Positions 13,086 to 46,540 of a stretch of DNA of 64,000 nt are shown piece after piece. Origin of the DNA: a phage; the sequence record NC_135728.1. One strand, given 5' to 3'. Under the pieces are notes generated by a model, which was given only the letters and a program-made list of their open reading frames with translations, was not told where the DNA came from and searched no databases. Positions within the stretch are counted from its first letter, which is position 1, and each line of letters opens with the position of its first letter. The position numbers and the translations under genes are program-made.

Positions 13086-13997
13086 TTATTTTCCGTTAAC
13101 TTTGTCGTAGTTTCCCTGCTCTGACGGAACTATAGTGGAAGGTCTTCCATATTCCTGATAGTACCAATCGGCAGCGGACTGGGTAACACCGTTTTCATCT
13201 GTCCACATCATAGACTTGTATGGCTGCCACTCTTCTGCAGCATTTGTGGATGCAGTGTCTGCAAATGCCCCTGTATCTCTCTTGTTACCTACATTACTAC
13301 CATTCTTACAATCGTTGACAGCACCTTTTTGCTGGGTCTTCCCAACTTTTTTAGGATTGCTGTACACTGTTGCATTAACAACTTTGTTCAAGTAAAATGT
13401 GCGGAATTCTGTAAGTTCTACATCAAACACCATTGCAGCTCCTTCACCAACAGACTTGTTGGCAGAAAGGCTGGTTATGATATAGTTCTCAAGGAGTCTC
13501 TCCTCGGTAACCAAGGAAACCAACTGTCGCTTATTGATAATCTCAGTCAAAGCCTCCAATGCAGCTCCTGGTCTCATAGATGCTGCAGGGTTTTTAGAGT
13601 CAGTATTCCTATCAATGTAGTTTTGCTCATAAATTATATGTGGGGATGTATTTACCCTGCCAGTAAAAGAAAATACACCATCTTTAATTACAGCGTGGTC
13701 TGACATGGTAGATTTATCTTCCACTGCAAAACCAGTTTTATCAACAGAATGTTTGAAAGAATAGTTCTCAACCTGGTCGAAGATAATGGCAAGATCGTTA
13801 GTAAAGTTTTTACCCTTCATCTCCGTATTGCGACCACCATAGTTAAGACCGCTGACAAACATAGTGTACTTTACATCACCTTCAGTTTGCTGCTCAGCCT
13901 TTTCAGCCTTTGGAGACTTAACCTCTTGAGGCTTGTACAGATCTTTTTCATCAACTATATTATTTGGCATAACCTCTCCAGGACACTCCGATACCAT
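13086..13997 (-). CDS. hypothetical tail protein (303 aa), immediately downstream of tape measure
   Basis: ORF track; synteny with tail modules. Confidence 0.4.
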   Translation of the reverse strand: MVSECPGEVMPNNIVDEKDLYKPQEVKSPKAEKAEQQTEGDVKYTMFVSGLNYGGRNTEMKGKNFTNDLAIIFDQVENYSFKHSVDKTGFAVEDKSTMSDHAVIKDGVFSFTGRVNTSPHIIYEQNYIDRNTDSKNPAASMRPGAALEALTEIINKRQLVSLVTEERLLENYIITSLSANKSVGEGAAMVFDVELTEFRTFYLNKVVNATVYSNPKKVGKTQQKGAVNDCKNGSNVGNKRDTGAFADTASTNAAEEWQPYKSMMWTDENGVTQSAADWYYQEYGRPSTIVPSEQGNYDKVNGK

Positions 13998-14074: not shown

Positions 14075-16414
14075 TTACCAAAGATCTGTTGACATAAAGT
14101 TAATATCTTTGCTATTCTCCCACTCAAGTTTTGCATCAAGTATTTTGCTAAACTCACCTTCATCTATAGAAATGGTGATTTTACCATCGCTGATCTCCAA
14201 AGGTAACATTTCCATGGTTCTCAGTTGAGAGGCAAAACCAGGGCCACCAGGTAGCGGAAGGGTTCCACCAGGTAAAGTGTCTAGAGGATTAACAAACCCG
14301 TTGCCACCCGATACTATATCTTTGCGGATCATGTCACTAATAGTATCCAGCTGTTGATTTCTCTCACTGAAAGGGTTGAAACGATCATTAACCATAGCCC
14401 CAGCACTCAATAATGTCCCAAGTATCCCCAACTTACCTAACATACCGGTACCTTTGATGCCTGGTGCTTTTATTCCACCACCTTTTCCTGCTGCGCCACC
14501 TACAGAACCCCCTGTGGTGATGGCACCAGCGCCAGCAGCTCCAGCTGCACCTTTCAGGGTGCTAAGGAACTTAAAAGTTTTTACAAGCATGGATGCCATG
14601 ACAAACCCTTTTGTAAGAGCGTGCACTACCAGCATAATGGCAGCAGCATACCCTGCCCATTTGGCAGTGCTGAAGGTGTCATGCAGCTCTTCGGAATACT
14701 CCTTCGTCTTAGCTGTTATGAACCCCCATTTGATGCCCCACTCAAGGAAAAACAGGCGGATCTTAACTATAGTGTTGTTTAGCTCACCAACAACCCAGTT
14801 AAGGCCTCTAATAAATCCGCTAACAAAATCACCTGAGGCATCCCACACAAATTGCAGAGTCTCACCTGTGCGGATCAAGGTGTAGTAGAACTCTGTCAAT
14901 TCATCTGCCCAACGGGTGAACAGTTTCTGACGAGACAGTTCTATGAAGGTTTTCAGTCTGTTTTCTGCCAGTACGTTAGACTTCTGCATTCTTTCATAAC
15001 CAGCTGCAGATGCCTCGTTCATGTACTTAGCCACATACTTCATGATCTTAGCTGTTTTAACCTCACCTTTCTTCATCATATCCATGAACTGATCCATGGA
15101 GAGTTCAGAAAGACCAAAAGCCTCTTTGGTGGCCTTGATAAAAGGTTCGTATGCACCAGGTAATGCTTCAGCAAGTTGTTGCTTCAGTTCTTCGGACATT
15201 ACTTGTCCCTTGCCTAGCATCTGTTGGATTGCCATGATACCACGCTGGTATTTTACCTCATCGGCACCATAAGCAGCAGCATACTGGGAGTATGCAGAGA
15301 ACAGCTCATGAACCTCCTGATTTGTCATCTGGTTTTTGGCGTTTACCGCCATCTGGGCGTAACCTTGAAGACCAGATTTGAGATCAAAACCAAGACGCAT
15401 AGCCTCTTGCTGGACAAACGCAACCTCACTGTTGGCTTTGTTTGGATCTCCAGTAACAGCAGTAAGAGCAGCACTTGCACCCTCCATCATGTGACCGGAT
15501 CTGTTAACAGCAGTAAATCCAGAAAAAGCCGTATACGCAGCTGTTGCATTAATAACAGATCTACGTAAGTCTCTCATGGCATCGCCTAGTGTAAGCGTTT
15601 GGTTGGTGGCGCTTTTAAACCCAGACTGCAGCGCTGACAGGTGGGCGTTAAAGGTTGACTTCTTCATCTCCCCGCGAGCAAACCTGGACTCTAACTCTGA
15701 GTATCCTGGCAAGCTTCCACGGAATCCGGCCCCATACTTGGCAGAAAGTCTTATCGCGGAGTTGTAGAGGTGGGTTCTCCTTGCCTCACGATCCGACATA
15801 AGCTTATTATCCATACCAGCTTTACTGTCTCTTCTTAGCTGTCTATGATAACGATTCATAGCGGCTGTCTGAGCTTTCACAAGGTTAGGGTCGGAAGCCA
15901 CACCACCCATATTAGGGTTACCGGGGATATATTTGAAAGATTTGGCATTAGCCAAAACTCTTGCCTTAGGTGCCTTATAACCACCGTAAGACACTGGTGC
16001 AGATTTGGCAGCCTTTTTGGCCTCTTTAGCTTGCTGCTGGTAGAACTTACGCATCCTAGCCATTTCTGGATTTTTAGCGGTAAGATTACCTACAGCTTGT
16101 TTACGTCTCGCATTCTCCCTACGTTCTATTGCAGCCCTTACTGCAGCCTCTTTCTTGGCCTGTGCTACGCTCTCTCTGTGCAGTTTAGCATTTGCCTGAG
16201 ATTGCTGTCTGGCAACCCTCTGCATTGTCTGCTGGGTTTTAACAGCTACCGCCTGCCATCTACTCATGGGGTTGGCTGAGTTAAAATCCTCGCCCAGTTT
16301 CCTGAACTCCCTCCCAATACTGCGAATTTTCTCTACAGCTTTTTTGTAGGAGGAGTTCTCTATCTCAAAGCCAATCTTGTTGACTGTTGTGGCAACTATT
16401 TTGTTTGTAGCCAT
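14075..16414 (-). CDS. tail tape measure protein (779 aa)
   Basis: Long, Ala/Lys/Gln-rich helical protein with a Gly-rich hydrophobic C-terminal segment; follows tube and chaperone genes. Confidence 0.8.
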   Translation of the reverse strand: MATNKIVATTVNKIGFEIENSSYKKAVEKIRSIGREFRKLGEDFNSANPMSRWQAVAVKTQQTMQRVARQQSQANAKLHRESVAQAKKEAAVRAAIERRENARRKQAVGNLTAKNPEMARMRKFYQQQAKEAKKAAKSAPVSYGGYKAPKARVLANAKSFKYIPGNPNMGGVASDPNLVKAQTAAMNRYHRQLRRDSKAGMDNKLMSDREARRTHLYNSAIRLSAKYGAGFRGSLPGYSELESRFARGEMKKSTFNAHLSALQSGFKSATNQTLTLGDAMRDLRRSVINATAAYTAFSGFTAVNRSGHMMEGASAALTAVTGDPNKANSEVAFVQQEAMRLGFDLKSGLQGYAQMAVNAKNQMTNQEVHELFSAYSQYAAAYGADEVKYQRGIMAIQQMLGKGQVMSEELKQQLAEALPGAYEPFIKATKEAFGLSELSMDQFMDMMKKGEVKTAKIMKYVAKYMNEASAAGYERMQKSNVLAENRLKTFIELSRQKLFTRWADELTEFYYTLIRTGETLQFVWDASGDFVSGFIRGLNWVVGELNNTIVKIRLFFLEWGIKWGFITAKTKEYSEELHDTFSTAKWAGYAAAIMLVVHALTKGFVMASMLVKTFKFLSTLKGAAGAAGAGAITTGGSVGGAAGKGGGIKAPGIKGTGMLGKLGILGTLLSAGAMVNDRFNPFSERNQQLDTISDMIRKDIVSGGNGFVNPLDTLPGGTLPLPGGPGFASQLRTMEMLPLEISDGKITISIDEGEFSKILDAKLEWENSKDINFMSTDLW

Positions 16415-20290: not shown

Positions 20291-20761
20291 TTACTGTCCG
20301 ATTTTAAAGGTTGCAGATTCAAGCAGCACATCGTAATGCCGCATAGCCTCGTTGAAGCCCTTTTCTTGTGCCCACTGCTCACTAACAGTAGGATTACTAA
20401 ACTGACCAGCCTCAATAACAAACTGGATAGCTTTGGCCCCTGTGTCCCCCATCTGCTTAAGAATAGCCTCTGCACTTGATCCTCTAGCCATAGCTCTCAA
20501 CAATTTTTCTGTCAAGGTCTGTAGTTGAGTGCTGTGAAATGCAAAGGCTGTCTCCATGAAATTGCGAACAGGCAGCCCGTTCCAACCGAAGTTGTGAATG
20601 GCTGCCAATGTTGCCATATTTAAGCCTGACGGGTGAGGTTCGTCATAAAAGCCGTAGGTTATTGTTTTACTTTCAAGTCTCACAAGTTCTTTGTAGAAGC
20701 TATCTAAACGCTTTAGGTTGAACCTTGTTTGACATTTAACCTTTAGCATTATATCCCTCAC
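20291..20761 (-). CDS. hypothetical head-tail connector/completion protein (156 aa)
   Basis: ORF track; synteny. Confidence 0.4.
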   Translation of the reverse strand: MRDIMLKVKCQTRFNLKRLDSFYKELVRLESKTITYGFYDEPHPSGLNMATLAAIHNFGWNGLPVRNFMETAFAFHSTQLQTLTEKLLRAMARGSSAEAILKQMGDTGAKAIQFVIEAGQFSNPTVSEQWAQEKGFNEAMRHYDVLLESATFKIGQ

Positions 20762-28102: not shown

Positions 28103-28421
28103 CGTTTATGTTCGGGCAAGGTCGCTAGTCTTGCCCCGCCATTTTCAGGCAGCTGCATGTCTCCATGCAGACCAGACTATATCTTATAAGCGACAACAAC
28201 CGCTTACCCTCCCGTTTCGAATCGCTTGATTCTACGTCTCTCGACTAGTCGTTGAACGTTCATCCTCTCGGATGCTTCGCTGCGGATTATCTAAATTAAC
28301 ACACTGTTACCCTACCTTCGATCTCTCTTCGAAGCCTCTATCATGTTACCATGACAGGTTGGTGGTGTCAATAATAAAGATTTCCCCGCAATTAGGGAGG
28401 TTTTACGAGAGCTGCAAATTA
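28103..28421 (-). ncRNA. group I self-splicing intron (ORF-less, about 319 nt) interrupting the large terminase gene
   Basis: Minus-strand sense contains the four conserved group I core elements: P AATTGCGGGGAAA (plus 28381-28400 region), Q AATCCGCAGC (28279-28288), R GTTCAACGACTAGTC (28243-28257), S AAGATATAGTCTGG (28172-28185); in-frame stop right after the 5' splice site; intron ends in G. Confidence 0.8.
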
Positions 28422-28847
28422 ACCCTCATCGAAGCAAACCATGGTGTACTCAAGCCCCTGATGGTTAAGCTTATCTTGTACATACTCCATGTGGCAGTAT
28501 TTTACAACAGCTCCCTTTTTGCTTCTATCCCACTTACCAGTGTTCGGATCAAACCGTGGAAAAATGAACTTATGATCCTTCTCTCTGAACTTTGGCTTAA
28601 TGTTTTCAGGCAGATCACTATAAATAGCTACTGCTTTAGGCCATAGTCCACCCTCACCTTCCAACTGTGGGGTTGTTCTTCGGAACATAACCACAGAGCT
28701 GTGGGGGTCATCAATAATTTTAAGTGGCATCAACTGCAAGAGGAACGACTTGCCAGACCCTGCGGCACCTCCGATTACCAAAATATCTGCATCGTTTTCT
28801 AGGATCATCTTCTGCTTTTCAGAACACGGTCCGTAAATCTTAGACAT
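28422..28847 (-). CDS. terminase large subunit, exon 1 (ATPase half)
   Basis: Walker A GGAAGSGKS and Walker B VCFDE; ends at ...VCFDEG followed by an intron-borne stop. Confidence 0.8.
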
Positions 28848-30190: not shown

Positions 30191-30196
30191 AAAAAG

Positions 30197-30294
30197 GTGC
30201 TAGGCGGTGGAATCGAACCACCTATGTATTCAACGACTACCTCGTCTATTTTCAGGATTAAAAATCCTCGCCCTTGCCAAAGGGCTTACCTAGC
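30197..30294 (-). tRNA. atypical tRNA-like gene (about 98 nt; canonical acceptor and T-arm, aberrant anticodon/variable region, CCA not fully encoded)
   Basis: Acceptor GCTAGGT/GCCTAGC and T-arm GGTGG-TTCGATT-CCACC are canonical; only a 4-bp AGGA/TCCT stem with loop TTTTTAA and a ~30-nt region before the T-arm; positions 8-9 are AA. Confidence 0.4.
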
Positions 30295-31227: not shown

Positions 31228-31256
31228 ATTTTATCATAGCAAATACTGATTGTCAA
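31228..31256 (-). promoter_or_regulatory. sigma70-like promoter for the AT-hook protein gene
   Basis: Minus-strand TTGACA, 17-bp spacer, TAAAAT, followed by GGAGG and ATG. Confidence 0.55.
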
Positions 31257-31545
31257 GTTCGCCGCAGGGTGGTATTCCCTGCGACTTGTCCAGCGTCCTG
31301 GACCAGCAAGACCCAACAAGTGGGTTACCAGAGGCCTATTACCCGCGCTTCGGCCCGACCTTGTTACAGGTTGGCTGGGGTCACATCGTCATGTGCTGGC
31401 TGCCCCTACCATTTTAAGTGTGGTGCACTATCAAGCCCTCTGAGGGGAACTCAGCTTTCTCCGAACCCTGTTTCAAAGCATCCGGAGATAAAGCCATCAA
31501 ATTCATCTTTAAATTGGATATTCATCATGATACACGAAAACAACC

Positions 31546-31788
31546 TCATTGTAAAGCACAAATAAATAAAACATACTTAATTTGTTTGTTATCAGGCTCA
31601 GGGTAGAAGTAGAAGATCTTGCTATCACCGATCTGAACACCACCATCCCAACAGCATAGCCCATAACCTGTATTCATACAAGCTAAGTCGTTGGCAAAAT
31701 CTATTGCATCATCCAGTGCACGAAATTCACCTTCATCTTCTAAATAATCCTCATTCATGGAACGAAAAACGAGCTTAACCTTAAACAT
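31546..31788 (-). CDS. hypothetical protein (80 aa)
   Basis: ORF track. Confidence 0.4.
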   Translation of the reverse strand: MFKVKLVFRSMNEDYLEDEGEFRALDDAIDFANDLACMNTGYGLCCWDGGVQIGDSKIFYFYPEPDNKQIKYVLFICALQ

Positions 31789-31864: not shown

Positions 31865-32074
31865 TCAACAGATTCCGGCCTTATCCTTCCTGTCTGCGTA
31901 TTCTTTAATCGCAACCTCATCTGCATTAGTGACCAGGTCTTCAAAGTAACTCTCAAGCTCCTCATCAATGTCAGGAGACCAGCTCTTTTTCCTGTCAGTG
32001 TGAATTGCAGACTTGTTGAACTTATTACAGTTCTTTGCTACCGGGTTGTTCATTAAGCGCTCCTCAGCGTTCAT
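31865..32074 (-). CDS. hypothetical protein (69 aa)
   Basis: ORF track; overlaps the start of the downstream gene. Confidence 0.35.
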   Translation of the reverse strand: MNAEERLMNNPVAKNCNKFNKSAIHTDRKKSWSPDIDEELESYFEDLVTNADEVAIKEYADRKDKAGIC

Positions 32075-32642
32075 AGTAAATCTTATTTAACATTACCTCA
32101 TCTTTTGCAGAAAGAATACCGAAATATGCATCACCGAATCTACCTGCAACAACCTCTGCATGATACATCACTTCGTTAATATCGTCAAGAGTGATAACTG
32201 GATGACCGTATCTCTCTGAGTATTGTCTCAGAGTGCGATGTAGAGAGTCATCATCATAGGCAGACTTTTTAATATCGCAAACACGACGAATAGCCTTGAT
32301 GTCGAAAAACCCTGTACGATACCAACCAAGAAAAAGGTTTCGTGCAGTGTCAACATCTACATCAATACCATCAAGAACCTTATCTACAAGATAGCTGTCA
32401 TCCTTTGGACCTGCTTCCTTAGTGCGAATGTAGTTGCCATCTTTTCCAGGTGACAGCTCCTTCTCATCACCAACCTGCATGCCATCATTTGGCGGTGTTA
32501 ACCACTTATCCGGATGCTTACGATCACGAGCGTTAGAATGATTACGCTGGAAACCTGGCTTCCACTTGAAAGTTTTCTCCATCTGTTCTTCATTCTGATA
32601 ACGTTTTGCAATCTTTTCACGGTCATCTTTGCGTGGACTCAT
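32064..32642 (-). CDS. hypothetical protein (192 aa)
   Basis: ORF track; GGAGG RBS upstream of ATG. Confidence 0.5.
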   Translation of the reverse strand: MSPRKDDREKIAKRYQNEEQMEKTFKWKPGFQRNHSNARDRKHPDKWLTPPNDGMQVGDEKELSPGKDGNYIRTKEAGPKDDSYLVDKVLDGIDVDVDTARNLFLGWYRTGFFDIKAIRRVCDIKKSAYDDDSLHRTLRQYSERYGHPVITLDDINEVMYHAEVVAGRFGDAYFGILSAKDEVMLNKIYYER

Positions 32643-33145
32643 AGCTGCCTCCTCTTCAAGTTATAGAAAAACTCACTGTATCGCTTTGTAACGAGCTTTT
32701 CTATCAAACTGGTGCGATTGCCTTACTTGGTATAGTTTATATGGCTGTGGAGCGATTTAGGGGCCTCATTGTCCGTTTCCACACATAAACTTTATCCAAA
32801 CTCGCGCGGGAATCTCTCAACCGACTCCTTACGGCGCTGGCAAGCTTTCGTCGGTGGTCCACATTAGTGCTCGGCCTTTGGCCTGCGCTATCGCTTCGCT
32901 CCCACACATGTTAACAGACCTGCATGTATGCACTTCTGTTATTGTGTGCACTATGGAGGCCCGGCATCTCGCCCCTCGTAGGCGAGTGCCAATGAAGGGC
33001 CGACACTACCTATAGAAAGTAATAAATTTAAAACATGGTACTTAGGATCTAGTATATTCTACATAAGTTAAGTATATGTACTTAGTACCATAAGTACTAG
33101 ATCTTTTATTTTTTATTATTTAGTTATTTTAGTTATATTCTTTAT

Positions 33146-33228
33146 GTGTCCGTATCACGGACAGTTAGTGTCCGTATCACGGACAGATGTGTCCGCGTGA
33201 CGGACAGTAGTGTCCGTATCACGGACAG
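33146..33228. repeat. array of four ~19-bp palindromic repeats (GTGTCCGTATCACGGACAG) at 21-22 bp spacing
   Basis: Copies at 33146-33164, 33168-33186, 33189-33207 (centre variant GCGTG) and 33210-33228; half-sites TGTCCG/CGGACA are perfect inverted repeats. Confidence 0.85.
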
Positions 33229-33302
33229 TTAATAGTTTCTGTTCCATGGTGAACATAAAACATACAAATCCTTATAGTACAGATATTTAAGTTTTTACTG
33301 GT

Positions 33303-33653
33303 CTAACCAGTTGTTGACATTCGAATAACTTCTTCTGGTGGCAAAACTTTGGAAAATGTGCATCTTTTACCTCTCCCTTGTGTGGATGTTTCAACAACTC
33401 CTGCACATTCTAAAGTTTTAACGCACGCTGCTGCTTTTGTTTTCTTTATCCCAACATCTGCTGCAATTTTCCTTGTGCTTGGTGTGAAGTGTGAATTTCC
33501 TCCAAGCTTATACCAGTTGTGCAGGTAGCAGTATACAATCTTGTCATACAAGTCAAGAACAACAACCTCCCCAGTTGTGTCATTCAAAACTTTTGACATA
33601 GATAGTATTTCAAGGGGGACTTTAAGATATAGCAGCTTATCCCCATCTTTCAT
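33303..33653 (-). CDS. putative DNA-binding protein (116 aa)
   Basis: ORF track; helix-turn-helix-like segment (TPSTRKIAADVGIKKTKAAACVKTLECAGVV); 75 bp from the palindromic repeat array. Confidence 0.4.
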   Translation of the reverse strand: MKDGDKLLYLKVPLEILSMSKVLNDTTGEVVVLDLYDKIVYCYLHNWYKLGGNSHFTPSTRKIAADVGIKKTKAAACVKTLECAGVVETSTQGRGKRCTFSKVLPPEEVIRMSTTG

Positions 33654-46119: not shown

Positions 46120-46540
46120 TGCAAAAGCTTTTGGTGAGACAGCGGTACAAAGAGGCCAGGCGATGGGACTGGCACTACCTTTCGTCTTAAAAGAGCACTT
46201 TACAGATTTTCAACTTATCAAAGGTGATAAGGGAATGCTTATCCTGGAGCATAAGTTGAGTAAGAAACGCTACAAAGTTGTTTTTAATTCTAAAGCCCCA
46301 ACAAAACTTGGATTCAGAACTTACAATCTCAACCCATCCTATACTAAGGGTGTTGGAAGGGTAGAACAACAGCATTTCAGTGCTAGAGCTTCTTTAGCCC
46401 CTTTGATGCTAAATTTCTCAGGAGTGGCTTTAGGATACCTTGATAAGAAAAGAGTTCTTCATGTCCGTTTCACAGACTTTGTAACGCTTTTAGCTAACAA
46501 CGAAGTTGATGAAAAGGGACGTGTAAAAACAAACTTCTAA
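46082..46540 (+). CDS. hypothetical protein (152 aa)
   Basis: ORF track. Confidence 0.45.
   Translation: MIKSIDLTKELTDAKAFGETAVQRGQAMGLALPFVLKEHFTDFQLIKGDKGMLILEHKLSKKRYKVVFNSKAPTKLGFRTYNLNPSYTKGVGRVEQQHFSARASLAPLMLNFSGVALGYLDKKRVLHVRFTDFVTLLANNEVDEKGRVKTNF

Follow-up and report, generated by a model that had tools for sequence, protein, structure and literature searches.

We describe a GC-rich intergenic element, here called island B, that lies at positions 32705–33012 (minus strand) of a 64,000-nucleotide stretch of phage DNA (record NC_135728.1; hereafter the window, whose coordinates are used throughout). The window belongs to a Vequintavirus, that is, an rV5-like coliphage. Its comparison with related phages, plasmids and metagenome contigs (88–99% conservation among phages, covariation, G-U pairs and stability of the fold) indicates that selection maintains island B in the form of a folded single strand. 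The element is non-coding, and in each of four genomic contexts it is linked to an array of palindromic iterons. The function that we tentatively favor, at somewhat short of an even chance, is that of an accessory arm, structured and constant, in a lambda-like origin module that can be swapped. Island B would then be either a signal for priming or loading on a single strand or a transcript of the origin.

Island B has the hallmarks of a selected fold

The earlier note on this DNA, made from the letters of the sequence, had called island B structured and non-coding, and both descriptions are borne out: stems covary while loops are conserved. The most conserved part is the core (32800–32870, minus strand), which is composed of AUGUGGACC, a 6-bp stem with a 24-nt loop, and then GAGAG..UCCCGCGCG. 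The two arms of the stem (32850–32855 and 32820–32825) read ACCGAC/GUCGGU in phages, GCUGCC/GGCAGC in plasmids and GACGGC/GCCGUC in a distantly related contig (L132): pairing is 100% in 13 sequences, with double changes at four of the six pairs. The loop between them (GAAAGCUUGCCAGCGCCGKAAGGA, 32826–32849) is invariant in phages and plasmids. The covariation score of the core is 0.413, compared to 0.179±0.031 for shuffles (none of 500 reaches the observed value), and slid controls are 15–56% paired; for the core as tested for compensatory change, 99% of cells are paired and five pairs carry double changes. These comparisons draw on essentially three or four independent lineages, and thus one to three events lie behind each covarying pair. 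The covariance model R1 scores 94–99 bits on phage, plasmid and metagenome-contig sequences and 18.5 bits (E 6e-4 in 1 kb) on the diverged core of L132. An inner stem proposed by RNAalifold for the loop (CUUGC/GKAAG) was rejected, as it places G opposite G in most lineages; L132 is better accommodated by a 3-bp hairpin (GCU-UGCC-AGC).

Two further domains show the same kind of change. Hairpin H1 (GGCCC...GGCACUCGCC-loop-GGCGAGAUGCC...GGGCC; 32958–33004, minus strand), at the 5′ end, keeps all 16 of its pairs in seven sequences (100% paired), and two G-C to U-A double changes separate the phage from plasmid NZ_CP020521.1, a result reached by seven of 500 shuffles. The 3′ domain (32711–32799, minus strand) comprises a helix (GUGUGG/CUAUAC) around the conserved GCCCCUAAAU and a small hairpin, GCU-CCAC-AGC. 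The helix takes the form GGUGCG/UGCACU in a relative from IMG/VR (contig L003) and CACUCACA/UGUGAGUG in plasmids; one position alternates between U-A, U-G and C-G, with a C.A mismatch in Aya. A different helix (UGUGGA/UCCACA) was dropped in favor of this one because changes in Aya break it. Compensatory changes in excess of shuffled and slid controls place island B among structured single-stranded elements, whether RNA or single-stranded DNA (ssDNA).

Not all of the element is equally constrained. The hairpin at 32905–32948 (AACAGA...UCUGUU, minus strand; inverted repeat I5) is variable and partly dispensable: rV5 and Pr121LW share an 18-bp deletion within it (32925–32942), and Pr121LW lacks a further 3 bp at ~32889–32891, so this part of island B tolerates loss. 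At the same place plasmids carry three to five other hairpin modules, each headed by (U)GUGUGGG; the phage has two to three.

Since covariation and G-U pairs fit the minus strand only, the minus strand of the window is the functional (sense) strand. RNAalifold applied to 12 phage sequences gives 93 pairs, many of them invariant G-U pairs on that strand. A probable long-range stem (5′ arm at 33002–33008, minus strand) includes a pair (columns 28/175 of alignment A2) that is U-A, U-G or C-G among phages; read on the plus strand, its U-G states would become A.C. Folding energies summed over seven homologues come to −922 kcal/mol for the sense strand vs. −859 for the antisense, the former being ~7% more stable. 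Folding z-scores of the single sequence are modest (−1.95 for the minus strand, −2.45 for the plus strand). Among 59 predicted hairpins (stems of at least 3 bp) 15 are closed by triloops and none by a GNRA or UNCG tetraloop: the fold is real, and its loop chemistry does not favor RNA over single-stranded DNA. The motif GUGUGGG may resemble rrn boxC, as GCUCGUUACAA may boxA and TGTGGAAAC a DnaA box. Overall, island B makes a clean candidate for a new family of RNA or DNA structures.

Genomic setting and conservation

Left of ~34.8 kb the genes of the window are carried by the minus strand. In the direction of transcription the order is a polynucleotide kinase (PNK)-like ATPase, a phosphoesterase, a 116-aa helix-turn-helix (HTH) protein, the iterons, AT-rich palindromes, island B, a 192-aa gene, a DUF7230 protein, an 80-aa protein, a second GC-rich segment (island A), ORF74, seven tRNA genes, the spanins and an intron-split large terminase gene. 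The earlier note had placed the element in a 660-bp gap and had described it as GC- and CpG-rich, followed by AT-rich palindromes and a four-repeat array. This picture stands: the gap runs from the start of the 192-aa gene (32642) to the stop of the HTH gene (33303), and both palindromes and repeats are present beyond island B. GC content at 32761–33010 is 0.556, compared to a window mean of 0.433 (sd 0.035, 250-bp windows), and CpG observed/expected is 0.92 vs. 0.64 for the whole window; this segment and island A are among the three 250-bp windows of highest GC content in the 64 kb.

A blastn search with 32600–33320 matched 118 phage records at 90–99% identity, all of them Vequintavirus, with phiWec193 the best at 99%. 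Eighteen of the 118 are named "Campylobacter phage" (MG0656xx; 92–99% identical); these records are probably mislabelled or derived from contaminating coliphages. Within Vequintavirus island B varies about as much as the surrounding coding DNA. The earlier note had staked the element on its being conserved, and across Vequintavirus and the IMG/VR relative identity is indeed 88–99%. In this relative island B (32801–33005) is 88% identical, compared to 84.6% for the neighboring gene, whereas neither the AT-rich stretch nor the iterons nor the HTH gene can be aligned (52–61%), their place being taken by a 143-aa HTH protein and GATACATATTTGYATCAGAT repeats. That the island is kept at 88% while the adjacent cassette cannot be aligned argues that island B is under selection of its own and that the cassette is exchangeable. 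The HTH gene, iterons and AT-rich stretch have been swapped as one unit (33141–33653 vs. 1319–1900 of L003), with boundaries at the phosphoesterase gene and at the 5′ edge of island B. A swap beside an unchanged element suggests a two-part origin, with a variable part for specificity and a constant, mechanical part.

Homologues were confined to Vequintavirus, two divergent relatives and a family of small E. coli plasmids. The phage collection contains it in Vequintavirus only; three search patterns run on IMG/VR returned a single true relative, and a metagenome scan gave six true loci and four chance loci. The exact 18-mer of the core has 95 matches in 185,579 species genomes, which were judged to be chance, most being in genomes that are GC-rich and non-enterobacterial by title. 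The two 18-mer matches looked into, L066 (the sole enterobacterial one) and L020 from IMG/VR, are both coding, with no R1 match on the former and a 15-bit partial match (E 0.8) on the latter. A host origin of the GC-rich DNA was sought by blastn in 5,426 complete Escherichia coli genomes: no chromosome matched, the only matches being to unannotated DNA of small circular plasmids in four of them.

Iteron arrays accompany the element in four contexts

In the window the iterons are four palindromic 19-mers, GTGTCCGTATCACGGACAG, at 33146–33231, 21–22 bp apart. A scan of the 64 kb returns eight strong matches (four sites, each on both strands), all at 33147–33227; a ninth match, with three mismatches, lies at 46462 (0.08 matches are expected by chance). 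Most phages have four copies, O157 typing phage 14 has six and V18 three. Between iterons and island B is an AT-rich palindromic spacer (33017–33140, by composition profile and inverted repeats I13 and I16) with palindrome arms at 33035–33045 and 33081–33091; GC content at 33000–33150 falls to 0.19–0.28, and the spacer is not conserved in the IMG/VR relative. The HTH protein on the other side (33303–33653, minus strand; Pfam DUF6945 and HTH_36) is the presumed iteron binder or initiator: it matches PHROG 12838, "replication initiation protein", and, weakly, two other initiator PHROGs. The GC-skew minimum, where transcription also diverges, is ~1.6 kb from the iteron cluster; in rV5 a skew change has been reported at the corresponding place (PMC3606486).

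The IMG/VR relative provides the second context, where GATACATATTTGYATCAGAT repeats stand with the 143-aa HTH protein, which is unrelated to that of the window. The third is L132 (Logan DRR174583_581), a 24.5-kb contig from an undescribed relative of Vequintavirinae that has homologues of the DUF7230 cluster, island A and the 192-aa protein. In this contig the module of iterons and island B is inverted and heads a DNA-metabolism operon (pRha, DNA ligase): a 990-nt gene-free gap, in a different gene neighborhood, holds, in this order, five AAGGGCCAAATAATGGCCC repeats, an AT-rich stretch, the diverged core and a near-consensus promoter. In the fourth, a family of capsid-encoding plasmids, six copies of CGGAAATATTTACCG accompany a Rep-like protein. 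Only two features are common to the four contexts: an array of palindromic iterons flanked by AT-rich DNA, with an unrelated iteron sequence and a different DNA-binding protein each time, and the element, which follows immediately downstream in the same orientation. This linkage is most readily accounted for by an origin module of which the element is the constant arm. In the plasmids and L132 strong promoters come right after the element, which is there outside the next operon.

According to our hypothesis, the small HTH initiator would bind the four iterons and the AT-rich palindromic stretch beside them would open. The minus strand of island B would then be available, either as unwound DNA in the lagging-strand template of a fork moving leftward or in a transcript leaving the origin, and would fold into a multi-hairpin structure with invariant loops that could signal the loading or priming of DNA synthesis. 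The cassette of iterons and initiator is interchangeable, the folded element is not, and the capsid-encoding plasmids, which have structural genes in common with these phages, carry the same element beside iterons of their own. Whereas conservation, strand, single-strand structure, lack of coding and the link to iteron arrays are shown, we infer that the iterons mark an origin and that island B acts in replication, be it as DNA or RNA. As expected of iteron origins, there are at least three repeats at helical spacing and an adjacent AT-rich stretch; the initiator-type annotations and the single iteron location in the window also fit, and the hairpin loops, which lack GNRA and UNCG and are a quarter triloops, were counted in favor. 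Of the functions offered by the earlier note (small RNA, origin, pac-like site), it is thus the link to an origin that now has the best support from context.

The geometry of the repeats is lambda-like. The lambda origin has four dyad-symmetric O-binding iterons about two helical turns apart, with AT-rich DNA and palindromes; at the present locus four 19-bp palindromic repeats, also about two turns apart, have an AT-rich palindromic flank and an adjacent gene for a small winged-helix/HTH protein annotated as initiator. Unlike in lambda, the repeats lie outside the initiator gene, and the initiator, at only 116 aa, has no visible helicase-recruiting domain; nor does lambda have a counterpart of the 300-nt structured element. 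For the latter there are parallels in single-strand initiation (ssi) signals, both G4-type primase sites (the G4 complementary-strand origin, the G site of R1) and sites of PriA primosome assembly (the pas of ColE1, ssiA of pAMbeta1). Like island B these are GC-rich multi-hairpin elements that function on one strand, are a few hundred bases from an initiator-opened duplex and are portable between replicons; judging from the geometry, the functional strand of island B would likewise be the lagging-strand template of a leftward fork from the iterons. Island B differs in its length (~300 nt vs. ~60–140 nt), its two to five GUGUGGG-headed hairpin units and its 24-nt invariant loop, and has no significant sequence similarity to the G4 origin and none to plasmids outside the satellite-like family described below.

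Several observations weigh against a role at an origin. The start of replication has been mapped in no Vequintavirus, and GC skew is confounded by transcription direction at this locus. The HTH protein could be a transcription regulator, with the iterons as its operators. Similarity to the G4 complementary-strand origin is not significant (60 of 200 shuffles do as well for the window; L132 is marginal at nine of 200). No known ssi-bearing plasmid is among the blastn matches in 72,556 plasmids: matches are confined to five satellite-like ones, and the element is therefore no sequence-level relative of known plasmid priming signals. Other genera of Vequintavirinae are without gap and element (five genera, represented by 4MG, K54_rec1, EspYZU14, Hena1 and ESCO5 and reached via the neighboring RNA ligase gene, gave no gap, iterons or R1 match), so that the element is not essential to replication in the subfamily. 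The region is probably transcribed in any case, and an RNA role is thus inseparable from a DNA role by sequence. Lastly, the phage genome has a second large region free of genes, beyond the window, that is itself a candidate origin.

This second region is in phiWec193 at ~114.1–117.3 kb (L135 9100–12300), where ~2.4 kb are free of genes, and may be an origin or regulatory region. It contains three copies of ACATGAGTTACTGTTTACACA, two of a 20-mer, and a cluster of CCCACACA and TGTGTGGG motifs; GUGUGGG motifs also cluster there, and two copies of 51–57 nt are 82–84% identical to part of the plasmid rep gene.

Literature searches turned up nothing relevant on non-coding RNA (ncRNA), origin or satellites of Vequintavirus. 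With no origin, pac site or ncRNA yet defined in these phages, which are widely used in phage-therapy cocktails, the element and its iteron block offer a concrete candidate that can be tested.

Alternative functions

Island B may instead be the gene of a ~300-nt structured ncRNA, transcribed leftward, with the HTH protein and palindromic repeats as regulator and operators; in phage and plasmid alike, the RNA would act in trans or would serve the origin, as its primer or by forming an R-loop. We regard this, the main rival, as possible but with some reserve. Functional RNAs usually show what is seen here, namely covarying stems, invariant loops and hairpins inserted as modules, the sense strand is parallel to all neighboring genes, and a regulator/operator cassette would also account for the linkage to palindromic repeats. 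Moreover, G-U pairs are frequent: a possible 10-bp helix, UGUGUGGGAG/CUCCCGCGCG, seen by direct reading of the sequence, has three, which DNA would tolerate poorly. Against this, the z-scores and the missing tetraloops given above are not what such a gene would lead one to expect, and no known family is recognized. Rfam 15 gave no match to island B in the window at gathering thresholds, or in its plasmid homologue; when the limit was relaxed to E=10 on 1 kb, nothing nearby matched except a spurious rli43 (27 bits vs. a threshold of 100) that falls mostly over the iterons. Signals expected of a free-standing small RNA gene, its own promoter and terminator, are also missing: there is no intrinsic terminator downstream on the sense strand, and no promoter upstream in the window or L132 (L003 has only a 9/12 match) in a scan of sigma70-like sites, phage-specific promoters being outside its coverage.

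Origin transcripts that prime or activate replication, such as ColE1 RNA II and those of the T4 oriF/oriG R-loops, are a further parallel. These too are long, structured RNAs whose folding matters, and the GUGUGGG motifs of island B could hybridize to a C-rich template; however, such RNAs arise from a defined promoter and lie upstream of the start site, while island B has no detected promoter and is downstream of the AT-rich stretch.

The plasmids raise a broader idea. They are circular, non-mobilizable E. coli plasmids of 13–15 kb (L016, which is NZ_CP020521.1; L015, L017, L018, L019, L116 and L121). Besides those found in E. coli genomes, one more was recovered from PLSDB, giving five satellite-like plasmids among 72,556 as the only blastn matches; two metagenome contigs (13.9 and 15.5 kb) belong with them, and one record of the family, at 39.6 kb, carries three copies of the element. 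The plasmids encode a major capsid protein, Neck1 or tail-completion, baseplate or fiber-like and tape-measure proteins, some of them 38–55% identical to proteins of the window (13284–13841, 20321–20662 and 15119–15328). The Rep-like protein (303 aa) has weak matches to O-like initiator PHROGs (E ~3e-4). Of 15 proteins 10 were tested, with no terminase among them, and the non-genic DNA common to plasmids and a complete Vequintavirus genome is mainly the element. In gene content the plasmids resemble satellites, or mini-phages, of rV5-like phages, hitherto undescribed. Rather doubtfully, island B could be a portable signal saying "replicate or package me" to the machinery of rV5-like phages, and the plasmids unrecognized satellites of large lytic myoviruses that use it for amplification or mobilization on helper infection. 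If so, they would be satellites of a new kind (extrachromosomal, with a myovirus helper and their own tail genes), and the shared element would be a handle for the study of phage–plasmid interaction. Known helper signals – the P2 cos in P4, or helper pac/cos sites in phage-inducible chromosomal islands – are, like island B, short, non-coding and common to phage and small elements, and the plasmids resemble such satellites in having some structural-gene homologues and apparently no terminase. Unlike island B, those signals are duplex protein-binding sites without covarying stems, and they belong to established satellites, which the plasmids are here only presumed to be.

It is improbable that island B is the pac site of a headful packager, or a signal of the helper machinery that plasmids have copied for packaging. 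Vequintaviruses are reported to package by the headful (pac) mechanism and have permuted genomes, with no location given for pac (PMC13211470, PMC8407724). The sharing of the element with plasmids that have capsid and tail parts and no detected terminase would make sense on such terms; the repeated GUGUGGG could be binding sites for small terminase, and in the window the large terminase gene follows ~4 kb downstream of the element and is transcribed in the same direction. Compensatory changes within one strand are, however, unexpected for a duplex site read by terminase, and in L132 the element points away from the terminase-ward cluster. No small terminase was identified near the element by Pfam, PHROG or structure model, the 192-aa neighbor being without features of one.

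This 192-aa gene (rV5 ORF77; 32064–32642, minus strand; PHROG 12226) directly follows island B, which could, in principle, be its cis-acting 5′ leader, governing translation, stability or read-through of the mRNA over a stretch that includes island A and the seven tRNA genes. We consider this quite improbable. In the window no promoter was detected between element and gene, and long untranslated stretches downstream would be exposed to Rho. There is also an invariant A/U-rich hairpin (32663–32704, minus strand; 12 bp, 18-nt loop; inverted repeat I10) between island B and the ribosome-binding site of the gene, 20 nt off: it is the least variable stretch of the 4-kb region. Its arms are 92% complementary when read as the plus strand, and on the minus strand they pair throughout, one pair being G-U. 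In the plasmids direct reading of the sequence shows a comparable hairpin after the element. In both plasmids and L132, however, a near-consensus promoter stands between the element and the next gene, and the gene downstream differs in each context. The 192-aa protein is 83% identical in the IMG/VR contig and 50% in L132, where its gene is 5 kb from the element, among DNA-metabolism genes, with an upstream gap of only 60 nt. The gene is thus probably a neighbor of island B and not its partner. The protein, for which there is no Pfam match and whose structure model shows only a weak winged-helix C-terminal domain, was also rejected as a small terminase or RNA partner, its distant homologue not being beside the element.

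Coding potential and island A

The earlier note had island B without open reading frames (ORFs). Three mechanical ORFs of 40–56 aa in fact overlap it, one of which (32737–32907, minus strand; 56 aa, GTG start) is annotated as ORF78 in rV5 (NC_011041) and is annotated also in NHEP1; what stands is that no coding signal is evident. Substitutions in ORF78 number 13/16/18 by codon position, compared to 36/21/90 in the neighboring gene (13 genomes), the frame is broken in two relatives (L003 and L010), and there is no PHROG or Pfam match. Island B is therefore non-coding, and ORF78 was rejected as a gene.

The same note had related island B to island A on the basis of shared motifs, and this kinship did not survive. 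The best local alignment of the two scores 19, compared to 17.8±2.3 for shuffles (86 of 300 do as well), and the 9-mer that they have in common, GTGCACTAT, with two occurrences, is found two or more times in 16 of 100 window shuffles. Its statement that no group I core is present was upheld: RF00028 is silent at 32400–33400 up to E=10, while detecting the intron in the terminase gene. It is thus extremely improbable that island B is a small protein gene, a diverged copy of island A or the remnant of a group I intron, despite the annotation of ORF78, the common 9-mer and a genuine group I intron 4.5 kb away.

Island A (31230–31500) is a separate conserved element. It is non-coding and very well conserved (90.7% identity in the IMG/VR relative), and its homologue in L132 (1480–1720; 76% over 119 nt) is in the syntenic place, apart from the island-B element of that contig. 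Promoter-like sites flank it at 31555–31527 and 31256–31228, one of its hairpins differs in phage Gotham by a double change (C-G to U-A), and its 5′ part is overlapped by a 32-codon ORF annotated in some genomes.

The intron in the large terminase gene (28153–28457, minus strand; RF00028, 79 bits) has already been reported for rV5 (PMC3606486). Within the cluster of seven tRNA genes, a 99-nt tRNA-like gene at 30196–30294 receives a four-base anticodon call (ARAGORN "tRNA-???"); public records label it tRNA-OTHER or tRNA-Lys.

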